DNA of 17,842 nt from a virus: UHGV virus genome UHGV-1912862; one strand, 5' to 3'. Below, one piece after another: positions 1 through 17,842 of the stretch. Each line of letters starts with the position of its first letter. Within the stretch, counting starts at the first letter, position 1. A model generated the notes under the pieces. That model was not told the DNA's origin, searched no databases, and saw only the letters and a list, made by a program, of their open reading frames with translations. The translations under genes and the position numbers were made by a program.

Positions 1-2400
1 GAAGCCTTCGGGAAGCTGACCACAGACCCGACGTCGGGGCTGACGGCGATGGCGCGCCAGTTCCATAACGTGACGGCGGAGCAGATTGCGTATGTTGCTC
101 AGTTGCAGCGTTCCGGCGATGAAGCCGGGGCATTGCAGGCGGCGAACGAGGCCGCAACGAAAGGGTTTGATGACCAGACCCGCCGCCTGAAAGAGAACAT
201 GGGCACGCTGGAGACCTGGGCAGACAGGACTGCGCGGGCATTCAAATCCATGTGGGATGCGGTGCTGGATATTGGTCGTCCTGATACCGCGCAGGAGATG
301 CTGATTAAGGCAGAGGCTGCGTTTAAGAAAGCAGACGACATCTGGAATCTGCGCAAGGATGATTATTTTGTTAACGATGAAGCGCGGGCGCGTTACTGGG
401 ATGACCGTGAAAAGGCCCGTCTTGCGCTTGAAGCCGCCCGAAAGAAGGCTGAGCAGCAGACTCAACAGGACAAAAATGCGCAGCAGCAGAGCGATACCGA
501 AGCGTCACGGCTGAAATATACCGAAGAGGCGCAGAAGGCTTACGAACGCCTGCAGACACCGCTGGAGAAATATACCGCCCGCCAGGAGGAACTGAATAAG
601 GCACTGAAAGACGGAAAAATCCTGCAGGCAGATTACAACACGCTGATGTCGGCGGCGAAAAAGGACTATGAAGCGACGCTGAAAAAGCCGAAGCAGTCCG
701 GCGTGAAAGTGTCTGCGGGCGATCGTCAGGAAGACAGTGCTCATGCTGCCCTGCTGACGCTTCAGGCAGAACTCCGGACACTGGAGAAGCATGCCGGAGC
801 GAATGAGAAAATCAGCCAGCAGCGCCGGGATTTGNNNNNNNNNNGCTGCAGACGCCGCTGGAGAAATATACCGCCCGTCAGGAAGAACTGAATAAGGCCC
901 TGAAAGACGGAAAAATCCTGCAGGCAGATTACAACACGCTGATGGCGGCGGCGAAAAAGGACTATGAAGCGACACTGAAAAAGCCGAAACAGTCCGGCGT
1001 GAAGGTGTCTGCAGGAGAGCGTCAGGAAGACAGTGCTCATGCCGCCCTGCTGACGCTTCAGGCAGAACTCCGGACGCTGGAGAAGCATGCCGGAGCGAAT
1101 GAGAAAATCAGCCAGCAGCGCCGGGATTTGTGGAAGGCGGAAAGTCAGTTCGCGGTACTGGAGGAGGCGGCGCAACGTCGCCAGCTGTCCGCACAGGAGA
1201 AATCCCTGCTGGCGCATAAAGATGAGACGCTGGAGTACAAACGCCAGCTGGCTGCACTTGGCGATAAGGTCACGTATCAGGAGCACCTGAACGCGCTGGC
1301 GCAGCAGGCGGATAAATTCGCACAGCAGCAACGGGCAAAACGGGCCGCCATTGATGCGAAAAGCCGGGGGCTGACTGACCGGCAGGCAGCGAAGGAAGCC
1401 ACGGAACAGCGCCTGAAGGAGGAGTATGGCGATAATCCGCTGGCGCTGAATAACGTCATGTCAGAGCAGAAAAAGACCTGGGCGGCTGAAGACCAGCTTC
1501 GCGGGAACTGGATGGCAGGCCTGAAGTCCGGCTGGAGTGAGTGGGAAGAGAGCGCCACGGANNNNNNNNNNAAAAAACCGGGGGCTGACTGACCGGCAGG
1601 CAGCGCGGGAAGCCACGGAACAGCGCCTGAAGGAACAGTATGGCGATAATTCTCTGGCGCTGAATAACGTCATGTCAGAGCAGAAAAAGACCTGGGCGGC
1701 TGAAGGCCAGCTTCGCGGGAGCTGGATGGCAGGCCTGAAGTCCGGCTGGAGTGAGTGGGAAGAGAGCGCCACGGACAGTATGTCGCAGGTAAAAAGTGCA
1801 GCCACGCAGACCTTTGATGGCATTGCACAGAATATGGCGGCGATGCTGACCGGCAGTGAGCAGAACTGGCGCAGCTTCACCCGTTCCGTGCTGTCCATGA
1901 TGACAGAAATTCTGCTTAAGCAGGCAATGGTGGGGATTGTCGGGAGTATCGGCAGCGTCATTGGCGGTGCTGCCGGTGGTGGCGCATCAGTGTCAGGCGG
2001 TACAGCCATTCAGGCCGCTGCGGCGAAATTCCATTTTGCGACCGGAGGATTTACGGGAACCGGCGGCAAATATGAGCCAGCGGGGATTGTTCACCGTGGT
2101 GAATTTGTCTTCACGAAGGAGGCAACCAGCCGGATTGGCGTAGGAAATCTTTACCGGCTGATGCGCGGCTATGCCACCGGTGGTTATGTCGGTGGCACCG
2201 GAAGTCCGGCGCAAATGCGGCGTTCAGAGGGTATCAGATTTGAGCAGAACAACAACGTGGTGATTCAGAACGACGGTACGAATGGTCTGCCAGGTCCACA
2301 GATGCTGAAGGCAGTGTATGACATGGCCCGCAAGGGTGCCCGTGATGAAATTCAGGCACAGATGCGCGATGGTGGTCTGTTCTCCGGAGGTGGACGATGA
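1..2400 (+). CDS. H: Tail tape-measure protein (lambda gpH-like), 5'-truncated by the window; frame broken by scaffold joins at 835-844 and 1562-1571
   Basis: Frame is open from nt 1. Translation is Ala/Gln/Lys-rich and coiled-coil-like with a Gly-rich segment (GGAAGGGASVSGG). Stop TGA 2398-2400 overlaps the M start (ATGA). Sits directly upstream of M-L-K-I-J. Confidence 0.9.
835..844. other. Scaffold join (10 N); 845-1130 re-reads about 549-834
   Basis: N-run followed by a near-identical copy with substitutions. Confidence 0.85.
1562..1571. other. Scaffold join (10 N); about 1574-1775 re-reads about 1360-1561
   Basis: N-run followed by a near-identical copy with substitutions. Confidence 0.85.
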
Positions 2401-2726
2401 AGACCTTCCGCTGGAAAGTGAAACCCGGTATGGATGTGGCTTCGGCCCCTTCCGTCAGGAAAGTGTGCTTTGGTGATGGCTATTCCCAGCGAGCGCCTGC
2501 CGGGCTGAATGCCGACCTGAAAACGTACAGCGTGACGCTTTCTGTTCCCCGTTGGGAGGCCACGGCGCTGGAGTCGTTTCTGGCTGAGCACGGGGGCTGG
2601 AAAGCCTTTCTGTGGACGCCGCCTTATGAGTGGCGGCAGATAAAGGTGACCTGCGCAAAATGGTCGTCGCGGGTCAGTATGCTGCGTGTTGAGTTCAGCG
2701 CAGAGTTTGAACAGGTGGTGAACTGA
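2397..2726 (+). CDS. M: Tail tip protein M (lambda gpM-like), 109 aa
   Basis: ORF MKTFRWKVKPGMDVASAP...EFEQVVN. GGAGG Shine-Dalgarno at 2383-2387. Stop overlaps L start (TGATG). Length and position match lambda M. Confidence 0.92.
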   Translation: MKTFRWKVKPGMDVASAPSVRKVCFGDGYSQRAPAGLNADLKTYSVTLSVPRWEATALESFLAEHGGWKAFLWTPPYEWRQIKVTCAKWSSRVSMLRVEFSAEFEQVVN

Positions 2727-3680
2727 TGCAGAATATCCGGCAGGAAACACTGAATGAATGCACCCGTGCGGAGCAGTCGGCCAGCGNNNNNNNNNNGATA
2801 TCCGGCAGGAAACACTGAATGAATGCACCCGTGCGGAGCAGTCGGCCAGCGTGGTGCTCTGGGAAATCGACCTGACAGAGGTCGGTGGAGAACGTTATTT
2901 TTTCTGTAATGAGCAGAACGAAAAAGGTGAGCCGGTCACCTGGCAGGGGCGACAGTATCAGCCGTATCCCATTCAGGGGAGCGGTTTTGAACTGAATGGC
3001 AAAGGCACCAGTACGCGCCCCACGCTGACGGTTTCTAACCTGTACGGTATGGTCACCGGGATGGCGGAAGATATGCAGAGTCTGGTCGGCGGAACGGTGG
3101 TCCGGCGTAAGGTTTACGCCCGTTTTCTGGATGCGGTGAACTTCGTCAACGGAAACAGTTACGCCGATCCGGAGCAGGAGGTGATCAGCCGCTGGCGCAT
3201 TGAGCAGTGCAGCGAACTGAGCGCGGTGAGTGCCTCCTTTGTACTGTCCACGCCGACGGAAACGGATGGCGCTGTTTTTCCGGGACGTATCATGCTGGCC
3301 AACACCTGCACCTGGACCTATNNNNNNNNNNCTTCGTCAACGGAAACAGCGACGCCGATCCGGAGCAGGAGGTGATCAGTCGCTGGCGCATCGAGCAGTG
3401 CAGCGAACTGAGCGCGGTCAGTGCCTCCTTTGTACTGTCCACACCGACGGAAACGGACGGCGCTGTTTTTCCGGGACGTATCATGCTGGCCAACACCTGC
3501 ACCTGGACCTATCGCGGTGACGAGTGCGGTTATAGCGGTCCGGCTGTCGCGGATGAATATGACCAGCCAACGTCCGATATCACGAAGGATAAATGCAGCA
3601 AATGCCTGAGCGGTTGTAAGTTCCGCAATAACGTCGGCAACTTTGGCGGCTTCCTTTCCATTAACAAACTTTCGCAGTAA
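2726..3680 (+). CDS. L: Tail tip protein L (lambda gpL-like); contains two scaffold joins (2787-2796, 3322-3331) with re-read blocks, true length about 232 aa
   Basis: Translation MQNIRQETLNECTRAEQSASVVLWEIDLTEVGGERYFFCNEQ... ending with a Cys cluster (RGDECGY...DKCSKCLSGCKF) as in gpL. After subtracting the re-reads the length is about 700 nt. Confidence 0.92.
2787..2796. other. Scaffold join (10 N); 2798-2851 re-reads 2733-2786
   Basis: N-run followed by a near-identical copy. Confidence 0.85.
3322..3331. other. Scaffold join (10 N); 3332-3512 re-reads 3141-3321
   Basis: N-run followed by a near-identical copy with substitutions. Confidence 0.85.
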
Positions 3681-3684
3681 TCCC

Positions 3685-4428
3685 ATGACAGAGACAGAAT
3701 CAGCGATTCTGGCGCACGCCCGGCGATGTGCGCCAGCGGAGTCGTGCGGCTTCGTGGTAAGCACGCCGGAGGGGGAAAGATATTTCCCCTGCGTGAATAT
3801 CTCCGGTGAGCCGGAGGCGTATTTCCGTATGTCGCCGGAAGACTGGCTGCAGGCAGAAATGCAGGGTGAGATTGTGGCGCTGGTCCACAGCCACCCCGGT
3901 GGTCTGCCCTGGCTGAGTGAGGCCGACCGGCGGCTGCAGGTGCAGAGTGATTTGCCGTGGTGGCTGGTCTGCCGGGGGACGATTCATAAGTTCCGCTGTG
4001 TGCCGCATCTCACCGGGCGGCGCTTTGAGCACGGTGTGACGGACTGTTACACACTGTTCCGGGATGCTTATCATCTGGCGGGGATTGAGATGCCGGACTT
4101 TCATCGTGAGGATGACTGGTGGCGTAACGGCCAGAATCTCTATCTGGATAATCTGGAGGCCACAGGGCTGTATCAGGTGCCGTTGTCATCAGCACAACCG
4201 GGCGATGTGCTGCTGTGCTGTTTTGGTTCATCGGTGCCGAATCATGCCGCCATTTACTGTGGTGATGGCGAGCTGCTGCACCATATTCCTGAACAACTGA
4301 GCAAACGAGAGAGGTACACCGACAAATGGCAGCGACGCACACACACCCTCTGGCGTCACCGGGCATGGCGCGCATCTGCCTTTACGGGGATTTACAACGA
4401 TTTGGCCGCCGCATCGACCTTCGTGTGA
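3685..4428 (+). CDS. K: Tail tip assembly protein K (JAMM/MPN plus NlpC/P60-like), 247 aa; alternative internal start at 3829 would give 199 aa
   Basis: ATG at 3685 (MTETESAILAHARR...). JAMM motif HSHPGGLPWLSEAD (HxHx7Sx2D) and downstream Cys/His consistent with NlpC/P60. Its 3' end overlaps the I start out of frame by about 100 nt. Confidence 0.9.
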   Translation: MTETESAILAHARRCAPAESCGFVVSTPEGERYFPCVNISGEPEAYFRMSPEDWLQAEMQGEIVALVHSHPGGLPWLSEADRRLQVQSDLPWWLVCRGTIHKFRCVPHLTGRRFEHGVTDCYTLFRDAYHLAGIEMPDFHREDDWWRNGQNLYLDNLEATGLYQVPLSSAQPGDVLLCCFGSSVPNHAAIYCGDGELLHHIPEQLSKRERYTDKWQRRTHTLWRHRAWRASAFTGIYNDLAAASTFV

Positions 4429-5155
4429 AAACGGGGGCTGAAGCCATCCGGGCACTGGCCACACAGCTCCCGGCGTTTCGTCAGAAACTGTGCGACGGCT
4501 GGTATCAGGTACGGATTGCCGGGCGGGACGTCAGCACGTCCGGGTTAACGGCGCAGTTACATGAGACTCTGCCTGATGGCGCTGTGATTCATATTGTTNN
4601 NNNNNNNNCGCACTGGCCACACAGCTCCCGGCGTTTCGTCAGAAACTGAGCGACGGCTGGTATCAGGTACGGATTGCCGGGCAGGATGTCAGCACGTCCG
4701 GATTAACGGCGCAGTTACATGAGACTCTGCCTGATGGCGCTGTGATTCATATTGTTCCCAGAGTCGCCGGGGCCAAGTCAGGTGGTGTATTCCAGATTGT
4801 CCTGGGAGCAGCCGCCATTGCCGGATCATTCTTTACCGCCGGAGCCACCCTTGCAGCATGGGGGGCAGCCATTGGGGCCGGTGGTATGACCGGCATCCTG
4901 TTTTCTCTCGGTGCCAGTATGGTGCTCGGTGGTGTGGCGCAGATGCTGGCACCGAAAGCCCGGACGCCCACAGCGACCAGCACGGATAACGGTAAGCAGA
5001 ACACGTATTTCTCTTCACTGGATAACATGGTTGCCCAGGGCAATGTTCTGCCTGTTCTGTACGGTGAAATGCGCGTGGGGTCACGCGTGGTTTCTCAGGA
5101 GATCAGCACGGCAGACGAAGGGGATGGTGGTCAGGTTGTGGTGATTGGTCGCTGA
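4326..5155 (+). CDS. I: Tail tip assembly protein I (lambda gpI-like); contains scaffold join 4599-4608 and a re-read, true length about 222 aa
   Basis: MAATHTHPLASPGMARICLYGDLQRFGRRIDLRVKTGAEAIRALATQLPAFRQK... followed by a Gly/Ala-rich hydrophobic C-terminal half ...GDGGQVVVIGR. Stop TGA 5153-5155. Confidence 0.9.
4599..4608. other. Scaffold join (10 N); 4609-4756 re-reads 4451-4598
   Basis: N-run followed by a near-identical copy with substitutions. Confidence 0.85.
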
Positions 5156-5173
5156 TGCAAAATGTTTTATGTG

Positions 5174-5199
5174 AAACCGCCTCCGGGCGGTTTTGTCGT
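5174..5199 (+). promoter_or_regulatory. Perfect 8-bp hairpin (AAACCGCC-tccg-GGCGGTTT) followed by a T-rich tract in the I-J intergenic spacer; possible attenuator or RNA-stability element
   Basis: Inverted repeat read directly from the sequence. A second copy with the same stem and loop tgcg lies at 6064-6089 in the re-read block. Confidence 0.35.
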
Positions 5200-5215
5200 T
5201 TATGGAGCGTGAGGA

Positions 5216-5665
5216 ATGGGTAAAGGCAGCAGTAAGGGGCATACCCCGCGCGAAGCAAAGGACAACCTGAAGTCCACGCAGCTGCTGAGTGTGATCGATG
5301 CCATCAGTGAAGGGCCGATTGAAGGTCCGGTGGATGGATTAAAAAGCGTGCTGCTGAACAGTACGCCGGTGCTGGACAGTGAGGGGAATGCCAATATATC
5401 CGGCGTCACGGTGGTGTTCCGGGCAGGTGAGCAGGAGCAGACTCCGCCGGAGGGGGTTGAATCCTCCGGTTCCGAGACGGTGCTGGGTACGGAAGTGAAA
5501 TATGACACGCCGATCACCCGCACCATCACGTCGGCAAACATCGACCGTCTGCGCTTTACCTTCGGTGTGCAGGCACTGGTGGAAACCACCTCAAAGGGGG
5601 ACAGGAATCCATCGGAAGTCCGCCTGCTGGTTCAGATACAGCGTAACGGTGGCTGGGTGACGGAA
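5216..5665 (+). CDS. J: Host-specificity protein J, 5' fragment (first allele copy, cut by scaffold join 5666-5675)
   Basis: MGKGSSKGHTPREAKDNLKSTQLLSVIDAISEGPIEGPVDGLK... is about 96 percent identical to 6106-6555. GAGG Shine-Dalgarno at 5211-5214. Confidence 0.8.
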
Positions 5666-5675
5666 NNNNNNNNNN
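5666..5675. other. Scaffold join (10 N); 5676-6555 re-reads 4786-5665 (I 3' end, I-J spacer, J 5' end)
   Basis: N-run followed by an 880-nt diverged copy at constant offset 890. Confidence 0.85.
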
Positions 5676-6045
5676 CGTATTCCAGATTGTCCTGGGAGCT
5701 GCCGCCATTGCCGGATCATTCTTTACTGCCGGAGCCACCCTTGCAGCATGGGGGGCAGCCATTGGGGCCGGTGGTATGACCGGCATCCTGTTTTCTCTCG
5801 GTGCCAGTATGGTGCTCGGTGGTGTGGCGCAGATGCTGGCACCGAAAGCCAGAACTCCCCGTACACAGATAACGGATAACGGCAAACAAAACACCTATTT
5901 CTCCTCACTGGATAACATGGTTGCCCAGGGCAATGTTCTGCCCGTTCTGTTCGGTGAAATGCGCGTGGGGTCACGTGTGGCATCTCAGGAGATCAGTACA
6001 GCTGATGAAGGTGATGGTGGTGAAATCGTGGTGATTGGTCGCTGA
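5676..6045 (+). CDS. I: Tail assembly protein I, 3' fragment (second allele copy; re-read of 4786-5155 with substitutions)
   Basis: Encodes ...APKARTPRTQITDNGKQNTYFSSLDNMVAQGNVLPVLFGEMRVGSRVASQEISTADEGDGGEIVVIGR, against TPTATSTDNG...YGEM...GQVVVIGR in copy one. Confidence 0.8.
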
Positions 6046-6105
6046 TGGAACATGTTTTATATGAAACCGCCTGCGGGCGGTTTTGTCGTTTATGGAGCAT
6101 GAGGA

Positions 6106-11127
<5,022 letters not shown>

Positions 11128-11146
11128 ATTTTATAACCCATATACG

Positions 11147-11172
11147 GGCACCAGAAATGGTGCCTTTTTTTT
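11147..11172 (+). terminator. Rho-independent terminator after J (GGCACCA-gaaa-TGGTGCC then T8)
   Basis: 7-bp GC-rich stem, GAAA tetraloop and T8 run, 20 nt after the J stop. Confidence 0.65.
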
Positions 11173-11193
11173 GCAGAAAAGCGAGAGGTAATT

Positions 11194-11730
11194 ATGCGTA
11201 AATTATGTGCTGTTATTCTGTCCACAGTAGTCTGGCTGGTCGCCGCTGGTACGCCAGCGAGCGCAGCAGAGCATCAGTCCACACTAAGCGCCGGGTATCT
11301 TCAGACCCATACTGATATGCCCGGCAACGATGACCTGAAGGGCATTAACGTGAAATACCGTTATGAATTTACGGACACGCTGGGGCTGGTGACGTCATTC
11401 AGTTATGCCAATGCCAAAGATGAGCAAAAAACGCATTACAGCGATACCCGCTGGCATGAAGATTCAGTGCGTAACCGCTGGTTCAGCATGATGGCGGGGC
11501 CGTCTGTACGCGTGAATGAATGGTTCAGTGCTTATGCGATGGCAGGTGTGGCTTACAGCCGTGTTTCGACGTTCTCCGGGGATTATCTCCGCGTAACTGA
11601 CAACAAGGGGAAAACGCACGATGTGCTGACCGGAAGTGATGACGATCGCCACAGCAACACGTCTCTGGCGTGGGGAGCTGGCGTGCAGTTTAACCCGACC
11701 GAATCCGTGGCCATTGATATTGCTTATGAA
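11194..11730 (+). CDS. lom: Lom-family outer membrane protein (Ail/OmpX/Lom beta-barrel), allele copy A, 3' end lost at scaffold join 11731-11740
   Basis: MRKLCAVILSTVVWLVAAGTPASAAEHQSTLSAGYLQTHTDMPGNDDLKGINVKYRYEFTDTLG... Signal peptide plus beta-strand pattern. GAGAGG Shine-Dalgarno at 11183-11188. Confidence 0.8.
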
Positions 11731-11740
11731 NNNNNNNNNN
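11731..11740. other. Scaffold join (10 N); 11741-12332 re-reads about 11140-11730 (terminator plus lom)
   Basis: N-run followed by a diverged copy; the lom signal-peptide region differs markedly. Confidence 0.85.
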
Positions 11741-11747
11741 CAATACG

Positions 11748-11771
11748 GGCGCCAGAAATGGCGCCTTTTTT
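11748..11771 (+). terminator. Second copy of the post-J terminator (GGCGCCA-gaaa-TGGCGCC then T6) inside the re-read block
   Basis: Same hairpin as 11147-11172 with G-C/A-T compensatory changes in the stem. Confidence 0.5.
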
Positions 11772-11795
11772 ATTGCAGAAAAGCGAGAGGTAATT

Positions 11796-12395
11796 ATGCG
11801 TAAAGTTTATGCAGCCATTTTGTCCGCAGCCATCTGTCTGGCCGTATCCGGTGCGCCTGCATGGGCATCTGAGCAGCAGGCCACACTGAGCGCAGGGTAT
11901 CTTCATGCCCGTACGAACGCTCCCGGCAGCGATAATCTGAACGGGATTAACGTGAAATACCGTTATGAGTTTACGGACACGCTGGGGCTGATTACGTCAT
12001 TCAGTTATGCCAACGCTGAAGATGAGCAAAAAACGCATTACAGCGATACCCGCTGGCATGAGGATTCCGTGCGTAACCGCTGGTTCAGCGTGATGGCGGG
12101 ACCGTCTGTGCGCGTGAATGAATGGTTCAGCGCGTATGCGATGGCGGGGGTGGCTTACAGCCGTGTTTCGACCTTCTCCGGGGATTATCTGCAGGTGACC
12201 GACAACAAGGGGAAAACGCACGATGTGCTGACCGGAAGTGATGACGGTCGCCACAGCAACACGTCTCTGGCGTGGGGGGCTGGCGTGCAGTTTAACCCGA
12301 CCGAATCCGTGGCCATTGATATTGCTTATGAAGGCTCCGGCAGTGGCGACTGGCGCACTGACGGTTTCATCGTGGGTGTCGGTTATAAATTCTGA
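11796..12395 (+). CDS. lom: Lom-family outer membrane protein, allele copy B, complete, 199 aa
   Basis: MRKVYAAILSAAICLAVSGAPAWASEQQATLSAGYLHARTNAPGSDNLNGINVKYRYEFTDTLGLITSFSYANAEDEQKTHYSDTRWHEDSVRNRWF...GFIVGVGYKF. C-terminal aromatic residue typical of OMP barrels. Confidence 0.9.
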   Translation: MRKVYAAILSAAICLAVSGAPAWASEQQATLSAGYLHARTNAPGSDNLNGINVKYRYEFTDTLGLITSFSYANAEDEQKTHYSDTRWHEDSVRNRWFSVMAGPSVRVNEWFSAYAMAGVAYSRVSTFSGDYLQVTDNKGKTHDVLTGSDDGRHSNTSLAWGAGVQFNPTESVAIDIAYEGSGSGDWRTDGFIVGVGYKF

Positions 12396-12422
12396 TTAGC
12401 CAGGTAACACAGTGTTATGACA

Positions 12423-12449
12423 GCCCGCCGGTTCAGGCGGGCTTTTTTG
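12423..12449 (+). terminator. Rho-independent terminator after lom (GCCCGCC-ggttcag-GGCGGGC then T6)
   Basis: 7-bp GC stem and T-run, directly followed by GGAG (12451-12454) and the stf ATG at 12460. Confidence 0.65.
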
Positions 12450-12459
12450 TGGAGTGGAT

Positions 12460-14817
12460 ATGGCAGCAGTAAAAATCTCAGGTGTGCTGAAAGATGGTGC
12501 GGGAAAACCAATACAGAACTGCACTATTCAACTGAAGGCAAAGCGTAACAGCACCACTGTACTGGTGAACACGGTGGCCTCTGAAAATCCGGATGAAGCC
12601 GGGCGTTACAGCATGGACGTTGAGTATGGCCAGTATAGCGTTATCCTGCTGGTTGAAGGTTTTCCGCCTTCACATGCCGGGATCATTACCGTCTATGAAG
12701 GTTCCAGACCAGGTACGCTGAATGATTTTCTCGGTGCCATGACGGAAGATGATGTCATGCCGGAGGCATTGCGTCGTTTTGAGGCAATGGTGGAAGAAGC
12801 GGCACGCAACGCCGAAGCCGCCTCTCAGAGCGCAGCGGTGGCAAAGAAATCCGAAACTGCAGCGGCATCATCGAAGAACGCGGCGAAAACCTCAGAAACG
12901 AATGCAGCTAACAGCGCACAGGCGGCAGCGTCCTCGCAGACTGCATCGGCAAACTCCGCGACAGCAGCCAAAAAATCAGAAACCAACGCGAAAAACAGCG
13001 AGACAGCCGCAAAGACGAGCGAAACCAACGCAAAGTCCAGCCAGACGGCAGCGAAGACCAGCGAAACGAATGCCAAAGCCAGTGAAACTGCGGCAAAAAA
13101 CAGCCAGGTTGCAGCAGCCCAAAGCGAGAGCGCGGCAGCCGGTTCTGCGACTTCAGCAGCTGGATCAGCAACTGCTGCGGCTAACAGCCAGAAAGCTGCG
13201 AAGACGAGTGAAACTAACGCAAAGTCCAGCCAGACGGCAGCGAAGACCAGCGAAACGAATGCCAAAGCCAGCGAAACTGCGGCGAAAAGCAGTCAGGATG
13301 CAGCAGCCGAAAGCGAGAGTGCTGCAGCTGGTTCTGCAACAGCGGCAGCTAATAGCCAAAAAGCTGCAAAAACCAGTGAAACTAACGCAAAGGCGAGCGA
13401 AACAAAAGCAGCAGCCAGCGAGACAGAAGCAACGTCAGCCGCAACAAGAGCAGAGAATGCAGCCCGGATTGCAGAAGATGCCGCTGATCCTGCTTCTGTC
13501 CCTCCGCTTCCTGATATCTGGCTACCCTTGAATGATTCTCTGGAAGCGATAACAGGGTATGCGCCGGGGTATAAAACAATAACCATCGGCAGCGATGAAA
13601 TCACTGTGCCAGTTAATGGCATATGCCAATTTAGCCGGGCTTCATCTGCAACGTATATTGATAAGTCCGGGCATATTACCGTGGCAGGTAATAACGTTCC
13701 TCGTTTTGAAAAATATGGTTTGCTGATAGAGAATCAGCGAACAAACATGTTCGTAAATAGTTTTAATCCTGATGCGTGGAATAAAAGCGGTGGTATATCT
13801 GTAACATCATCAACAGATGAATTTGAGTTTAAATATGGACGTTTCACGGTAGGAAGCGATATAGCAGGAACGACAACAGGGAGAAATATATGCACAGTTG
13901 CTGGTAACAAAGGCATAGATGTGACTGGCGATGATCAGTACAGTAAAGGTCCGTATGTTACCGCGTCGTTCAGGGTAAGAAGTGATCTCAATGTTCGCGC
14001 ACGTATCCGTTTTGAACGGTATAACTCGGAAGGATACACCTTCCTTTGCGACGCCTATTTGTCATTACAGACCCATGAACTACAAATTACTGGTGGCAAT
14101 GCCCAGCTATTAACAGCAAACTTTGAAATCGACCCTGGTAGTGGATGGATATATTTTCAGGCAACACTGAAATGTCTGCCAGAATGGGGAATGGTTGGTA
14201 CGCAGCTGCAAATTGCAGCCGACAGAGCTGTGGGAGCTTTTGCAACAGGTGACTGGATAGAAGTAACCACCCCGCAATTCGAGTATGGTGCTTGTGCAAC
14301 TTCCTTCATCATAACGACAACAGAGCCAGCGACTCGTGCATCAGATTTATGTAAATTTCCGCTGATGAAAAATATGTATACCATGCCTTTTACGTTCATG
14401 GTGGAAGTCCATAAAAACTGGTTTATTTCTCATAATGCTGCACCGCGTGTCATTGATTCAGAAAATCACCAGTCCGGAGGCCCATTTATTATGGGGTTTG
14501 GTTCTTCTGGAACTATCAGTCAGGACGGTTATTCGTATTGCGATATAGGCGGGGCTAACCGACGTGTATATGAATCATGCGGAGTAAGGGATCTCGTTAT
14601 GGGATTCAGGGTTAAGGCTGACGGCATGACATGCTCATTTGCAAATAAGCATATAAGCGCTGAAACAAAAACAGTATGGAAATATATTCGTGAAGCAGCC
14701 GTGATTCGTATCGGGGGGCAAACGACGACAGGATTACGACACCTTAATGGTCATATAAAAAACCTCCGTTTCTGGAACAGAGCATTGTCAGATACGCAGC
14801 TTAAGGAATACGTATAA
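12460..14817 (+). CDS. stf: Side tail fibre protein Stf: conserved N-terminal attachment domain, Ala/Ser/Thr-rich repeat shaft, AT-rich C-terminal receptor-binding domain with a LamG-like terminal motif
   Basis: From ATG 12460: MAAVKISGVLKDGAGKPIQNCTIQLKAKRNSTTVLVNTVASENPDEAGRYSMDVEYGQYSVIL... (lambdoid Stf N-terminus). Repeats KTSETNAK(A/S)S(E/Q)TAAK. C-terminus ...GHIKNLRFWNRALSDTQLKEYV. The ORF-track start at 12454 is GTG; I prefer ATG 12460. Confidence 0.85.
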   Translation: MAAVKISGVLKDGAGKPIQNCTIQLKAKRNSTTVLVNTVASENPDEAGRYSMDVEYGQYSVILLVEGFPPSHAGIITVYEGSRPGTLNDFLGAMTEDDVMPEALRRFEAMVEEAARNAEAASQSAAVAKKSETAAASSKNAAKTSETNAANSAQAAASSQTASANSATAAKKSETNAKNSETAAKTSETNAKSSQTAAKTSETNAKASETAAKNSQVAAAQSESAAAGSATSAAGSATAAANSQKAAKTSETNAKSSQTAAKTSETNAKASETAAKSSQDAAAESESAAAGSATAAANSQKAAKTSETNAKASETKAAASETEATSAATRAENAARIAEDAADPASVPPLPDIWLPLNDSLEAITGYAPGYKTITIGSDEITVPVNGICQFSRASSATYIDKSGHITVAGNNVPRFEKYGLLIENQRTNMFVNSFNPDAWNKSGGISVTSSTDEFEFKYGRFTVGSDIAGTTTGRNICTVAGNKGIDVTGDDQYSKGPYVTASFRVRSDLNVRARIRFERYNSEGYTFLCDAYLSLQTHELQITGGNAQLLTANFEIDPGSGWIYFQATLKCLPEWGMVGTQLQIAADRAVGAFATGDWIEVTTPQFEYGACATSFIITTTEPATRASDLCKFPLMKNMYTMPFTFMVEVHKNWFISHNAAPRVIDSENHQSGGPFIMGFGSSGTISQDGYSYCDIGGANRRVYESCGVRDLVMGFRVKADGMTCSFANKHISAETKTVWKYIREAAVIRIGGQTTTGLRHLNGHIKNLRFWNRALSDTQLKEYV
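13031..13400 (+). repeat. Imperfect in-frame tandem repeats (about 170-190 nt units) within the stf shaft
   Basis: caaagtccagccagacggcagcgaagaccagcgaaacgaatgccaaagcc recurs at 13031 and 13220. Shorter KTSETNAK motifs span about 12890-13400. Confidence 0.6.
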
Positions 14818-15086
14818 TGCGAGATATAACATTACGATTCGATAACAGAGAACAGTTTAACGCAATTGTATATGACAGTGGCCTGTTCAGTCTTGAAGAA
14901 GAAAACGGGGTTCTTGTTGATGTTATTGGCTGCATTATCGATTACGAGGAGCCAGAAAACGAAAGATGTACAGGCATTGATCGCGGTGGTTTTTTCGTAA
15001 ACATGAGGATTGTTGATAGCAGTAAAAACATATCTTCTTTAATGCCTTTCATTACGACAGATCAGCATGTAAGGACATGGGCTTAA
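14817..15086 (+). CDS. Hypothetical small acidic protein (89 aa), translationally coupled to stf (TAATG overlap)
   Basis: ATG 14817 overlaps the stf stop. AT-rich like its neighbours. No motif recognised: MRDITLRFDNREQFNAIVYDSGLFSLEEENGVLVDVIGCIIDYEEPENERC... Confidence 0.5.
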   Translation: MRDITLRFDNREQFNAIVYDSGLFSLEEENGVLVDVIGCIIDYEEPENERCTGIDRGGFFVNMRIVDSSKNISSLMPFITTDQHVRTWA

Positions 15087-15098
15087 TGGAGTAAGACA

Positions 15099-16139
15099 AT
15101 GGTTACAAAAACAGTAATTCCTGATGACATCAAAACGCTAAAATCCGATGTTAGTAAACTAAAAACTGATCAAGGAAGCTATGCAACAAAATCATATGTA
15201 GACAATAAAACAACATGGAATAGTTATTGCAATGTAATCTATGATCAAAAGGCATTGCCGACCACTGGAACTATATTTAGCGGTAAGATTCACTTGTCAA
15301 ATAAGACAGGAGAAACCGAAAACGCTTATAGTGAGATGTACACCAGAAAAAATATTGACGGTACAAAAGATACAATGACAAGGATTGTCACACACAATGG
15401 AACAAAAGGTATCTTTTGGGATTTTAGCGATCTTTACGGCGGAACATTAATTTTTCCAGGCAGTGATGGTTACCTTAAGATGGGGAACTGTCTCATGTCG
15501 TATGGTGTGCGGGGAAGTAACGCGCTTATTAAGTTTGACTGCACAGACACATTACAAATCAAATATGCCAATCATGGGTCAACCATGACATTAAACACAC
15601 AGGGGACCGCTCATTCTGGCGCTACTACTAGTTTGTGGGGTAACTCTACCCGTCCGGTTGTATATGAAGTTGGTGCTGATGGTGGCGCGTATATGTTCTA
15701 TGCGCAGAAAAATACCGATAACACCTATATGTTAAGCGTTAATGGTGCATGTCATGCCACCGCATTTAACCAGCATTCCGACCGGGATCTGAAAGACAAC
15801 ATTCAGGTGATCGATAATGCAACCGACCGCATCCGTAAAATGAACGGCTATACATACACGCTTAAAGAAAACGGTATGCCCTATGCAGGTGTCATTGCAC
15901 AGGAAGCTCTGGAAGCAATCCCAGAAGTTGTCGGTTCCGCAATGAAATATCAGGACGGTGCAAGCGGATCGGAAGGTGAAGAAGGTGAACGTTATTACAC
16001 AGTAGATTATTCTGGTGTTACTGGCTTGCTTGTTCAGGTAGCCAGAGAGTCAGACGACAGAATAACAGTACTGGAAGAAGAAAACGCAGAATTAAGGCAA
16101 AGATTATCTGCAATTGAGGCGACGCTTGCGTCTAAATAA
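15099..16139 (+). CDS. Tail fibre/tailspike-like protein with C-terminal intramolecular chaperone (peptidase S74 / endosialidase-chaperone-type) domain, 346 aa
   Basis: GGAGTAAG Shine-Dalgarno before ATG 15099. C-terminal region ...NQHSDRDLKDNIQVIDNATDRIRKMNGYTYTLKE..YAGVIAQEALEAIPEVV...LEEENAELRQRLSAIEATL carries the SDxxLK and G(V/F)IAQE hallmarks plus a terminal coiled coil. AT-rich. Confidence 0.75.
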   Translation: MVTKTVIPDDIKTLKSDVSKLKTDQGSYATKSYVDNKTTWNSYCNVIYDQKALPTTGTIFSGKIHLSNKTGETENAYSEMYTRKNIDGTKDTMTRIVTHNGTKGIFWDFSDLYGGTLIFPGSDGYLKMGNCLMSYGVRGSNALIKFDCTDTLQIKYANHGSTMTLNTQGTAHSGATTSLWGNSTRPVVYEVGADGGAYMFYAQKNTDNTYMLSVNGACHATAFNQHSDRDLKDNIQVIDNATDRIRKMNGYTYTLKENGMPYAGVIAQEALEAIPEVVGSAMKYQDGASGSEGEEGERYYTVDYSGVTGLLVQVARESDDRITVLEEENAELRQRLSAIEATLASK

Positions 16140-16180
16140 TATTAAGGGCTATGCGCCCCGTTTTATTGGGTAGGATGAAA

Positions 16181-16474
16181 ATGGATATAACACCTTTTCT
16201 TCATGCGCTTTGTGCTGTGGCTGCGCAGGTACTGGTTGGTCTTTTTACCGGAAACTGGGCTTACGGGGCGATAGCCGGTTGTACATTCTTCATTGCGCGG
16301 GAACACACCCAGGCAGAATATCGCTGGATTGAAATGTTCGGGCATTGCAAGCGGATTAACATGCCGTGGTGGGGCGGTTTTGATCCGCGTGTTTGGGATG
16401 TGGCAAGCCTGATAGATTTTGCTGTGCCGGTGGTGGCGTGTCTGCTGGTCTGGCTGTTGGTTAATCGTGGGTGA
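16181..16474 (+). CDS. Small polytopic inner-membrane protein (about 97 aa, three hydrophobic segments), function unknown
   Basis: AGGA at 16172-16175 then ATG 16181 (the ORF track begins at 16151). Hydrophobic stretches FLHALCAVAAQVLVGLFTG, AYGAIAGCTFFIA, LIDFAVPVVACLLVWLLV. G+C is host-like, unlike the upstream cassette. Confidence 0.5.
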   Translation: MDITPFLHALCAVAAQVLVGLFTGNWAYGAIAGCTFFIAREHTQAEYRWIEMFGHCKRINMPWWGGFDPRVWDVASLIDFAVPVVACLLVWLLVNRG

Positions 16475-16484
16475 AAAAAGGTGA

Positions 16485-16604
16485 GCTGTATATGCAACGG
16501 AGGAAGAAATCTCGTTGCTGGAAGCATGGAAAAAGTATCGGGTATTGCTGAACCGTGTTGATACGTCAACTGCACAGGATATTGAATGGCCAGCACTGCC
16601 GTAG
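16485..16604 (+). pseudogene. tfa: 3' remnant of a tail fibre assembly gene (tfa); only the last ~40 codons remain
   Basis: Frame-3 translation [39 protein letters not shown]-stop matches the conserved Tfa C-terminus (..[33 protein letters not shown]..). An in-frame stop lies at 16482-16484 and there is no start codon. Confidence 0.7.
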
Positions 16605-16701
16605 GGTAAAACATATAAATTCTATAATTAGATGTATCTTTCCATTTACGGCAAGGAAGGGGGCTTGGAAGACGTAAAGCATCTCACACCGAGATTATTT
16701 T

Positions 16702-17292
16702 TTATATGTCAGGTGTCTGAAGTTTTGCTTTGGCTCTTAAAATGGTTTGCCGCGAGGTTTTGAATTCCCGGGCAATGGCACTTATACTTACACCTGACTT
16801 AATTCGTTCGAATACCACCTGTTTCTGTTCTTCATTTAACACAGGTGGTCGACCAAAACGTTTCCCTGCGCCGCGGGCTCTTACTATCCCGGAATGAGTG
16901 CGTTCAAGTAAAAGGTCTCGTTCAAATTCAGCGACTGCTGAAATTACTTGCATCATCATTTTTCCTGTTGGACTGGTCAGGTCAATGCCCCCCAATGCTA
17001 AGCAATGCACTCTGATACCTGTTTCGGTCAGTTGTTCCACTGTTTTCCTGATATCCATTGCATTACAACCAAGGCGATCCAGTTTTGTCACAATCAATTG
17101 ATCACCACATTTCAGGCGAGCAAGCAACCGGTTAAAACCAGGACGCTCACTGGTTGCTGCTGAGCCGCTAATGTGTTCTTCGATTATTTGCTGAGATTTG
17201 ATGTTAAAACCTGCACTTTCGATTTCCCGGCGTTGATTTTCGGTGGTCTGATCCAGCGTTGATATCCGACAGTAAGCAAAAATTCGAGACAT
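16702..17292 (-). CDS. pin: Serine recombinase of the DNA-invertase family (Pin/Gin/Hin-like), 196 aa
   Basis: [20 protein letters not shown]... has the resolvase/invertase N-terminal catalytic motif (Ser11) and a C-terminal HTH ([21 protein letters not shown]). Position after stf/tfa and length 196 aa match the PinR/PinQ arrangement of Rac/Qin prophages as I recall it. Confidence 0.88.
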
Positions 17293-17608
17293 AGTGAGAC
17301 TCTATACGAAATTGGTGTTCATATCATAATGCATCTCAGAAAATAATTATGATTATTTTTGTGCATATTTGTATGTACACGTTCGAAAATAAACGAATGC
17401 GTATGCAACCCCGTAATTTTGGTGAGACCCAAAATCGATTTTGTGAAAAATGGCTTTAACTCGGTTTGTTTTTCGAGTTCCGGGAGGACTCAAGGAAGAA
17501 GAATAGTGTTGCGTGTTATTTTAACCAGATTTCAAGTTGTTTGGTCGTGGAAAAGTGGAGCAAAATGTTGTTAAAGTGGAAAAATGATAAAAAAGTAAGT
17601 TTATTATA

Positions 17609-17842
17609 TTACATTTTACCATTTAAATTTTGGTTGTCTTTAAGAACTGATATCGCTGTTTGTAATAATTCTTTGTTATCCAGCCATGATTTTTTCTTTA
17701 TGTTTCCTTCAATGTAATCAAGCAATGTTCTGGTATTGATAGGTCTTCCCTGTTTTGCTACTTCCACTACAGCATCCCCTAGGATAATTCTTACTTCAGG
17801 AAGCTGCGCAGGGAACCACTTTAGGGTGTCTTTTGATTTCAT
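17609..17842 (-). CDS. Small protein (77 aa), YdfK/YnaE-like by synteny with pin
   Basis: Complete ORF MKSKDTLKWFPAQLPEVRIILGDAVVEVAKQGRPINTRTLLDYIEG...; the start codon coincides with the window edge. AT-rich. The identity rests on recalled Rac/Qin gene order (pin next to ynaE/ydfK), not on a search. Confidence 0.5.
   Translation of the reverse strand: MKSKDTLKWFPAQLPEVRIILGDAVVEVAKQGRPINTRTLLDYIEGNIKKKSWLDNKELLQTAISVLKDNQNLNGKM

Follow-up and report, generated by a model that had tools for sequence, protein, structure and literature searches.

The locus considered in this work is located in the UHGV virus genome UHGV-1912862, and the whole stretch analysed, 17,842 nucleotides (nt) in length, will be referred to as the window. 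The question that it raises is what role is performed by a short protein of 346 amino acids (aa), which is encoded at 15099–16139 downstream of the side tail fibre gene stf. An earlier note on this DNA had described it as a stand-alone fibre protein with a self-cleaving S74 chaperone domain, serving either as a second receptor-binding protein or as a tip that docks onto the Stf protein. Judged from its sequence, the window represents the tail region of a lambda-like (lambdoid) prophage of Escherichia coli, and the results described below indicate that the 346-aa protein is probably the distal, receptor-binding subunit of a two-part side tail fibre.

The open reading frame (ORF) for this protein is intact and starts with ATG, and a GGAG Shine-Dalgarno sequence is present 7 nt 5' of its start. 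The family PHROG 4563 ('tail fiber protein') spans the protein in full (residues 1–346 of 346; E=5e-208). Many complete E. coli chromosomes match the surrounding 1.7 kb (14800–16500) at 100% identity; the copies in them lie within a lambdoid prophage adjoining prfC, and the protein bears the RefSeq name 'tail fiber domain-containing protein' (WP_021533786.1). At least 80% of this stretch is present in 226 of 5,426 complete E. coli genomes and partial copies are found in 1,895; the species-representative genomes of GTDB contained a single additional copy, in Escherichia ruysiae. These observations confirm that the ORF is a real gene, the evidence being far above chance. The protein family is already annotated (PHROG 4563; RefSeq) and common, yet its annotation goes no further than the RefSeq name given above, and that of a partner protein of ~90 aa no further than 'hypothetical'.

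The S74 chaperone domain and the anatomy of the 346-aa protein

In a search against Pfam, the 346-aa protein matched the family Peptidase_S74 (PF13884) with a score of 52.5 bits (gathering threshold 22; E=6.2e-14) over aa 227–278, covering positions 1–57 of the 58 in the profile. In addition, a profile constructed from 19 homologues (38–92% identity) was searched against the PDB sequences, where aa ~223–346 matched the intramolecular chaperone (IMC) of Salmonella phage S16 gp37 (6f45; E=2.5e-8), the alignment continuing through the last helix to the end of the protein; the S74 region of the profile also matched MYRF (7dc3; E=1e-3). Among the 19 homologues, whose identity falls as low as 38%, residues S227, D228, and K232 are each at least 90% conserved, and the sole exception to the conservation of S227 and K232 carries a deletion. 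A terminal helix (aa 305–345) was predicted in an AlphaFold2 (AF2) model with a predicted local distance difference test (pLDDT) score of 78–89. By these sequence criteria, the protein carries a bona fide Peptidase S74 chaperone domain, which is C-terminal and has a fibre repeat of the gp34 type immediately upstream.

The characterised S74 domains all act in cis on the polypeptide just upstream of them, and in T5 pb1 it is the Thr1263|Ser1264 bond that is cut, Ser1264 being activated by Lys1269, five residues further on (PMC4690869). By homology, the catalytic pair in the present protein is S227/K232 (codons 15777–15779 and 15792–15794), likewise a Ser followed five residues later by a Lys, with K232 as the presumed general base. 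By analogy with T5 pb1, the scissile bond would be His226|Ser227, and a mature chain of 24.8 kDa and a chaperone of 13.2 kDa are the predicted products. The earlier note had proposed the S74 domain, a terminal coiled coil, conserved Ser, Asp, and Lys residues and a mature part of ~226 aa, all of which agree with the above results, and the strings that it quoted, HSDRDLKDNI and GVIAQEALEAIPEVV, are found where it placed them. However, it had taken Ser-Asp to be the autoproteolytic pair and in this regard it needs to be corrected, as the dyad of this family is Ser/Lys. The domain shares with the IMCs of K1F endosialidase, T5 pb1, and S16 gp37 the profile match, the Ser-x4-Lys dyad, a GxIAQE motif, the terminal coiled coil and the C-terminal position in a trimeric fibre. 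It differs from them in that it is attached to a very short mature part (226 aa) made as a separate gene product, whereas they terminate a fibre or spike of 1000 aa.

Upstream of the chaperone, the protein is fibre-like over its length. It begins with an adaptor sequence, MVTKTVIPDDIKTLK, aa 9–58 of the profile match the trimeric coiled coils of Lpp, fibritin, and P22 gp26 (E=1e-3 to 1e-2), and aa ~184–233 match the repeat of the C-terminal fibre of T4 gp34 (4uxe, 5nxf; E=5e-6 to 9e-6). The C-termini of one-piece long fibres (PHROGs 6578 and 5668; mEp460 Stf) match it from aa 86, 114, or 148 onward. In Pfam no tail-attachment domain such as phage_tail_N was matched by the 346-aa protein, as the earlier note had anticipated, such a domain being present in Stf; no match to a Collar or Gp12-like domain was found in it either.

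A total of 44 distinct 346-aa alleles were compared by mean pairwise identity in each segment of the protein (Table 1). Diversification is concentrated in aa 38–105, as is expected of a receptor-contacting segment, and this part of the protein is thus a candidate receptor-contact region. The AF2 monomer model of the protein, which was based on the 19-sequence alignment, shows beta strands in aa 38–105 (pLDDT 76–83), but its mean pLDDT is 57 and that of the S74 region below 50, and a Foldseek search of this model against the PDB found nothing at E≤0.001. As would be expected of an intertwined trimer, the monomer model is unusable for assignment of the fold.

A conserved three-gene module with exchangeable tips

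The gene for the 346-aa protein begins 282 nt past the end of stf, and between the two lies an ORF for an 89-aa protein, which the earlier note had overlooked and which forms part of a conserved module. Stf itself consists of an N-terminal attachment domain, a repeat shaft rich in Ala, Ser, Thr, and Glu, and a globular C-terminal part of ~440 aa. Its aa 5–134 correspond to phage_tail_N (PF08400; E=6e-66) and aa 5–97 match the N-terminus of lambda Stf in the structure of the lambda tail (PDB 9e7m; E=8e-49). Further along, aa 424–629 match the NCBIfam family GTA_spike_fiber (NF048003; 47.9 bits vs. a cut-off of 36), and a profile of Stf matches the head spike fibre of the Rhodobacter capsulatus gene transfer agent (RcGTA; 6tb9; E=6e-11). 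A weak match to Laminin_G_3, a LamG/ConA-like signature, is seen at the C-terminal end, and the lectin-like stretch extends over 13720–14817 of the window (aa ~424–787). The C-terminal 438 aa are 43–52% identical to the lateral fibre proteins of T5-like, Queuovirinae, and Dhillonvirus phages. This ~440-aa module, which carries the conserved motif PLPDxWxP ... RxWxxxLxD, matched 218 phage records and forms the terminal part of the lateral fibres in T5-like, T1-like, Dhillonvirus, Queuovirinae, and rV5-like phages. No S74 domain was detected in Stf by Pfam and there is no functional tfa at the locus.

The start of the 89-aa ORF overlaps the stop codon of stf (TAATG). A profile of this protein matched 320 proteins at E≤1e-3, the best 120 of them at E≤5e-36, and homologues of 85–110 aa are found in the same position in Tritos, IrisVonRoten (gp23), VogelGryff, KarlBarth, ESCO3, and FFH2. 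No match to it was found in Pfam, NCBIfam, or the PDB sequences, and its AF2 model indicates a small alpha/beta fold (pLDDT 66), for which a fold search was uninformative. The ~90-aa protein is retained in loci that lack a distal gene (L071 and others), and in the rV5-like phage FFH2 it follows the homologous fibre domain, the next gene being one without the adaptor. Hence, the small protein tracks the C-terminal domain of Stf and not the tip, and it may be either a connector or a chaperone.

The same three elements, viz. the Stf C-terminal domain, the coupled ~90-aa protein (30–37% identity to the 89-aa protein) and a distal gene starting with MVTKTVIPxDIxxLK, are annotated in IrisVonRoten gp22/23/24 (Tequintavirus), VogelGryff (Seuratvirus), ESCO3 (Nonagvirus), KarlBarth (Dhillonvirus), and Tritos (lambdoid). 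In all of these annotated triads the third gene begins with M-(V/A)-T-x-T-x-I-P-x-D-I-x-x-L-K; KarlBarth gp30 and VogelGryff gp24 are among the proteins that open with this motif, as do shorter tips of 227, 234, and 340 aa. Full-length relatives of the 346-aa protein with ~40% identity are present in the same arrangement in a lambdoid-like locus (L004) and in a T5-like locus (L006), where the module comes after pb4 and LtfC. The upstream fibres of both share the C-terminal ~440 aa of Stf (42–43% identity over the whole alignment), with a ~92-aa homologue of the 89-aa protein between the fibre genes. Of 80 loci retrieved from IMG/VR by means of the Stf C-terminal domain, nearly all encode the small protein and, after it, a protein with the adaptor. 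In an independent scan of IMG/VR that used the back-translated adaptor motif alone, 40 distinct ORFs were recovered, and 38–39 of them are preceded, within 1.8 kb, by both the small protein and the C-terminal end of Stf. The module is also carried by phages that were deposited as isolates and whose propagation hosts are named, PhiR11_1 and HannyBb being examples.

The bodies that follow this adaptor are diverse. Besides the 346-aa S74 protein, they include S74 tips of 227/234 aa, whose mature part is only ~110 aa, a 340-aa gp34-like tip, the 574-aa 'T-shaped' gp24 of IrisVonRoten and the split KarlBarth gp30/31. Compared to a locus with a 227-aa tip (L020), the window is 98% identical over 12300–15142 and then again from 16180; hence, the swapped cassette corresponds to 15143–16179 and starts after codon 15 of the distal gene. 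In the loci L067 (3961–5512) and L201, the 340-aa adaptor-bearing tip has a Gp34_trimer domain where S74 would otherwise be, and a Caudo_TAP Tfa is encoded next, which indicates that the two-part fibre also exists in a Tfa-dependent form. It is the S74 domain, and not the splitting of the fibre, that removes the need for Tfa. In comparison to PhiR68_2, a phage with the classical Stf-Tfa-invertase layout, only 12300–12812 and 16493–17842 are shared, so that, relative to that layout, the replacement extends from the shaft of Stf into the middle of tfa. The suggestion in the earlier note that a Tfa-dependent system had been replaced holds for this locus, where only a remnant of tfa is left (16494–16604), but not for the architecture, which accepts Tfa-dependent tips (L067).

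The 89-aa and 346-aa ORFs share a reading frame, the spacer between them (within the 14817–15101 region) consisting of TAA and four codons (TAA TGG AGT AAG ACA ATG). An in-frame spacer of 9–12 nt is retained in most of the homologous loci, VogelGryff and KarlBarth being exceptions. No evidence was found for readthrough from the 89-aa into the 346-aa ORF, and the shared frame has probably been inherited along with the short spacer that holds the ribosome-binding site.

The two-part fibre is supported by the location of the attachment domain in Stf (phage_tail_N; 9e7m match) and its absence from the 346-aa protein, together with the conserved triad, the diverse tips behind one adaptor, the cassette boundary after codon 15 and the hypervariability of aa 38–105. 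The docking of such a tip onto Stf, which the earlier note had considered, fits well with the triad and with the context of the adaptor motif, from which it is predicted. A terminator-like hairpin (8 pairs, 7 of them G-C, then a run of T) is located at 12422–12443 between lom and stf, and no site comparable to it was found between stf, the 89-aa gene, and the 346-aa gene. In view of this, the stop/start overlap and the 12-nt gap, these three genes would be co-transcribed late. As suggested by its family membership, the C-terminal S74 chaperone would align three precursors and template the folding of the beta-rich trimer upstream of it. After folding, Ser227, activated by Lys232, would cut the His226|Ser227 bond, as indicated by homology to T5 pb1 and K1F endosialidase, releasing the chaperone from the mature chain; with self-folding and trimming of this kind no Tfa would be needed. 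The mature trimer may then plug onto the distal end of the Stf trimer by means of the adaptor and the short coiled coil, and the 89-aa protein may either act as a connector or chaperone the C-terminal domain of Stf, as the strict synteny and the positions of the cassette boundaries suggest. In the assembled fibre, aa 38–105 would contact a variable surface glycan, most likely the O-antigen, and the GTA-spike-fibre-like and LamG-like domains of Stf may offer a second binding site.

The closest well-described counterpart is found in IrisVonRoten (Bas32 of the BASEL collection; PLoS Biol 2025), in which gp24 has been modelled as joined to the proximal fibre gp22 and a galectin-like domain of gp22 protrudes (10.1101/2024.09.12.612763). 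The gene order of gp22–24 is the same as in the window, the ~440-aa C-terminal domains of the proximal proteins are homologous (~52% identity) and the homologous small protein, 92 aa in that phage, also overlaps the stop of the proximal gene. The adaptor of gp24, MVTKTVIPTDITKLK, is identical to that of the 346-aa protein in 12 of 17 positions, both proteins carry a C-terminal S74 domain, and aa 264–571 of gp24 ('T5-like RBD2', a receptor-binding domain (RBD), plus IMC) align with aa 29–336 of the present protein (E=4e-7). However, gp24 is considerably longer (574 aa) and its Gp12-like RBD1 is not present in the 346-aa protein, for which no T-shape is therefore expected. Furthermore, the fibre of this virulent T5-like phage is anchored by the T5 Ltf N-terminus and LtfC, whereas the temperate lambdoid version has a lambda-type phage_tail_N on Stf. 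The lambdoid form is thus a shorter, single-RBD relative of an architecture known from T5-like and other coliphages.

For the O157-specific T5-like phage AKFV33, a fibre made up of ORF137 (ltpA) and ORF135 (ltpB) was predicted in 2012; ORF135 has N- and C-terminal coiled coils, and only ORF137 was found in virions by mass spectrometry (PMC3326045). ORF136 of this phage is a homologue of the 89-aa protein, and ORF135 can be likened to the 346-aa protein by its description only. The phages DT57C and DT571/2 have branched LtfA/LtfB fibres (PMC4728585, PMC10713586), in which both proteins recognise O-antigens. By description they resemble the proposed fibre functionally in that a shorter second fibre protein is held via the first and not via the tail, whereas LtfA is resembled only by the repeat shaft of Stf. 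No sign of a ~90-aa partner or of the MVTKTVIP adaptor was seen for these fibres, although their locus was not itself examined.

Descriptions of lateral fibres that are built from two proteins and bear S74 tips date back to 2012–2016, and such fibres were modelled in 2025; the underlying biology will not surprise a phage specialist. No experimental study of the lambdoid single-RBD version was found in the searchable literature, and a literature search for PhiR11_1, PhiR47_1, ECOR13, and Tritos found no relevant paper; a preprint on the engineering of lambda STF likewise contained nothing that bears on the question. The range of E. coli strains that is accessible to a lambda-like phage or a lambda-derived DNA-delivery particle is set by its side tail fibres. 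If the proposed arrangement is correct, a short, Tfa-free tip that fits a conserved socket via a 15-residue adaptor would provide a convenient retargeting unit for such particles, and it would explain the horizontal movement of O-antigen specificity between temperate and virulent coliphages.

A broader proposal, which is put forward only tentatively and which we would not regard as probable, is that the first ~15 residues of the distal protein, the ~90-aa protein and the Stf C-terminal domain constitute a universal plug-and-socket joint common to lambdoid, T5-like, Queuovirinae, and Dhillonvirus phages. In this joint the ~90-aa protein would serve not as a chaperone but as a structural connector, comparable in function to T4 gp35/gp36. 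If this were so, adaptor-bearing tips could be swapped among otherwise unrelated phages, and Stf would bear two adhesins in series, viz. its own lectin-like domains and the exchangeable tip. Such a joint would be useful for engineering, and it would extend known principles without overturning them.

Weighing the distal-tip assignment against its alternatives

A number of observations weigh against the assignment of the 346-aa protein as a distal tip. Its cleavage, trimerisation, incorporation into the virion, docking onto Stf and receptor binding are all predictions derived from sequence comparisons. The variable segment is located in the N-proximal half of the mature chain, whereas receptor binding by T5 pb1 is presumed to take place at the very end of the C-terminal tip. 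The monomeric AF2 models of the 346-aa and 89-aa proteins are poor (mean pLDDT 57 and 66) and the fold searches gave no significant match. Most of the loci are from closely related E. coli prophages, so that the synteny counts do not represent independent events; the recurrence of the module in four or five lineages with very different tail tips is a stronger argument than these counts. Lastly, six related loci (L071, L073–L075, L081, and L082) contain Stf and the small protein and no distal gene, so that either the tip may be dispensable and Stf able to work by itself, or these loci are deletion derivatives. Two other loci (L030/L034) are likewise listed as having Stf and the small protein without a tip gene, and in L071 a 97-aa gene comes directly after the small protein.

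The occurrence of Stf without a tip gene in some prophages, and the presence in it of lectin-like C-terminal domains of its own, could also be accounted for if the 346-aa protein were an independent short fibre, i.e., a second receptor-binding protein attached to the tail tip (to J or to the N-terminal collar of Stf), the phage then having two separate adhesins. The 346-aa protein does appear to be complete in itself, folding unaided as a trimer and having a coiled coil of its own, and in DT57C a density seen at low contour near the tail tip has been assigned to LtfB (PMC10713586). However, no phage_tail_N or other attachment domain was found in the protein, and its adaptor occurs almost only behind the Stf C-terminal domain and the small protein, in phages whose tails are as different as those with a lambda-like J, with T5 pb3/pb4/LtfC and of the Dhillonvirus and Queuovirinae types. 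The constancy of this context over differing tail tips favours a partner of the adaptor within the module over one on the tail tip, and we consider direct attachment unlikely. Two record annotations, 'endosialidase chaperone' (ESCO3) and 'putative lateral tail fiber chaperone' (VogelGryff), might imply that the protein is absent from the virion and assists the assembly of Stf in trans, and the lack of both an S74 domain in Stf and of Tfa would allow it; in our view, such a role is highly unlikely. The known S74 domains act in cis (PMC4690869), the 226-aa part is itself fibre-like (coiled coil, gp34-type repeat, homology to the C-termini of one-piece fibres), and a hypervariable segment, which is typical of receptor-binding proteins, is not expected in a pure chaperone.

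The locus is also mosaic in nature, with a tfa remnant and an invertase lacking a target, truncated alleles of 254–295 aa are common in databases, and the upstream tail genes in the window are disrupted by near-duplications. These features would be consistent with a cassette that recombination at a tail-fibre hot spot has left behind, and that is unused or in decay and not expressed here as a functional protein. This we regard as quite unlikely, in view of the intact ORF with a good ribosome-binding site, the identical copies in many complete genomes and the strong conservation of the adaptor and the IMC, with variation concentrated in one segment. Further, the gene is present in isolated phages and in virulent phages, which keep no dead genes.

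Other features of the window

The order of genes in the window is tape measure, L, K/I, J, lom, stf, the 89-aa ORF, the 346-aa ORF, a 97/107-aa ORF, a tfa remnant and an invertase on the opposite strand. The features of its right-hand part are summarised in Table 1.

Table 1. Features of the side tail fibre region of the window, with mean pairwise identities of the segments of the 346-aa protein.
Feature	Coordinates	Strand	Identity among 44 alleles	Size and basis
stf, proximal side tail fibre subunit	12454..14817 (RefSeq start 12460)	+		787 aa; PF08400, 9e7m and GTA_spike_fiber matches
89-aa protein	14817..15086	+		PHROG 1361 (unknown function), E=1e-30
Probable distal side-tail-fibre subunit precursor	15099..16139	+		346 aa, 38.0 kDa (predicted); Pfam, PHROG, homologue alignment
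N-terminal adaptor (aa 1–15, MVTKTVIPDDIKTLK) and short predicted trimeric coiled coil (to ~aa 37)	15099..15209	+	91% (aa 1–37)	Allele identity, shared motif, profile match
Hypervariable segment, aa 38–105	15210..15413	+	62%, minimum 28%	Allele comparison; AF2
Conserved beta-rich body, aa 106–226, ending in T4 gp34-type fibre repeat (~aa 176–226)	15414..15776	+	85%	Profile search
Intramolecular chaperone/Peptidase S74 domain, aa 227–346	15777..16136	+	94%	13.2 kDa; PF13884, profile, conservation
97-aa hydrophobic protein	16181..16474 (also readable from 16151, 107 aa)	+		PHROG 1443
tfa remnant, C-terminal 36 codons only	16494..16604	+		RefSeq pseudogene 'tail fiber assembly protein, missing N-terminus'
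Pin/Hin-type serine DNA invertase, orphan	16702..17292	-		PF00239 and HTH_7; PHROG 125 DNA invertase

The part of the window from the tape measure gene to lom (1–12453) is ~4 kb longer than in the nearest natural genome, E. coli MS20659, its 12,453 nt aligning to 8,412 nt in 13 pieces. Within this part there are at least 11 tandem near-duplications that are 83–97% identical (e.g., 550–834/846–1130, 3141–3321/3332–3512, and 8028–8114/8126–8212) and that split H, L, K, and J into fragments; one of them (11165–11464/11767–12066) represents two copies of lom. In the shorter duplications, the second copy is located ~10–11 nt past the end of the first, and for the longer ones the reported copy length is limited to 300 nt, so that the gap between the copies is not defined. 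This looks like an assembly artefact, in which graph-bubble arms of two similar prophages were laid serially, and not like biology. The region of the 346-aa ORF is not touched by these duplications.

From 16493 on, the window and phages that have the whole stf-tfa-invertase layout share 99.6% identity, which places the right recombination junction of the fibre replacement inside tfa. The locus shares with the Stf-Tfa systems of lambda, Rac, and e14 its genomic slot (J-lom-stf...), the N-terminal domain of Stf, the 3' end of tfa downstream and a pinR-like invertase. It differs from them in the replacement of nt ~12813–16492 and in having no functional Tfa, invertible segment or lambda-type Stf C-terminus. 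An invertase is also common to the Mu G, P1 C, and e14 P invertible segments, whereas their crossover sites and opposite-strand C-termini were not found here. Within 12300–17842 there are no convincing inverted repeats, the best being 20 nt at exactly 80% identity, with none above 80% over at least 20 nt that is suitably placed. A search allowing up to 3 mismatches revealed no gix-like site, and the window contains no oppositely oriented fibre cassette. Despite the adjacent invertase, an invertible (shufflon-like) cassette was rejected as an explanation on these grounds.

The 97-aa protein encoded next to the distal gene has two strongly hydrophobic 19-aa windows, in its N- and C-terminal segments, and no match to it was found in Pfam, NCBIfam, or the PDB sequences. 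Its gene follows the 346-aa and the 227/234-aa tips alike and is also found in loci that have no tip gene, which indicates that it belongs to the backbone and not to the exchanged cassette. It probably encodes a membrane protein and is probably not part of the fibre; possibly, it is a lysogenic-conversion or exclusion gene.

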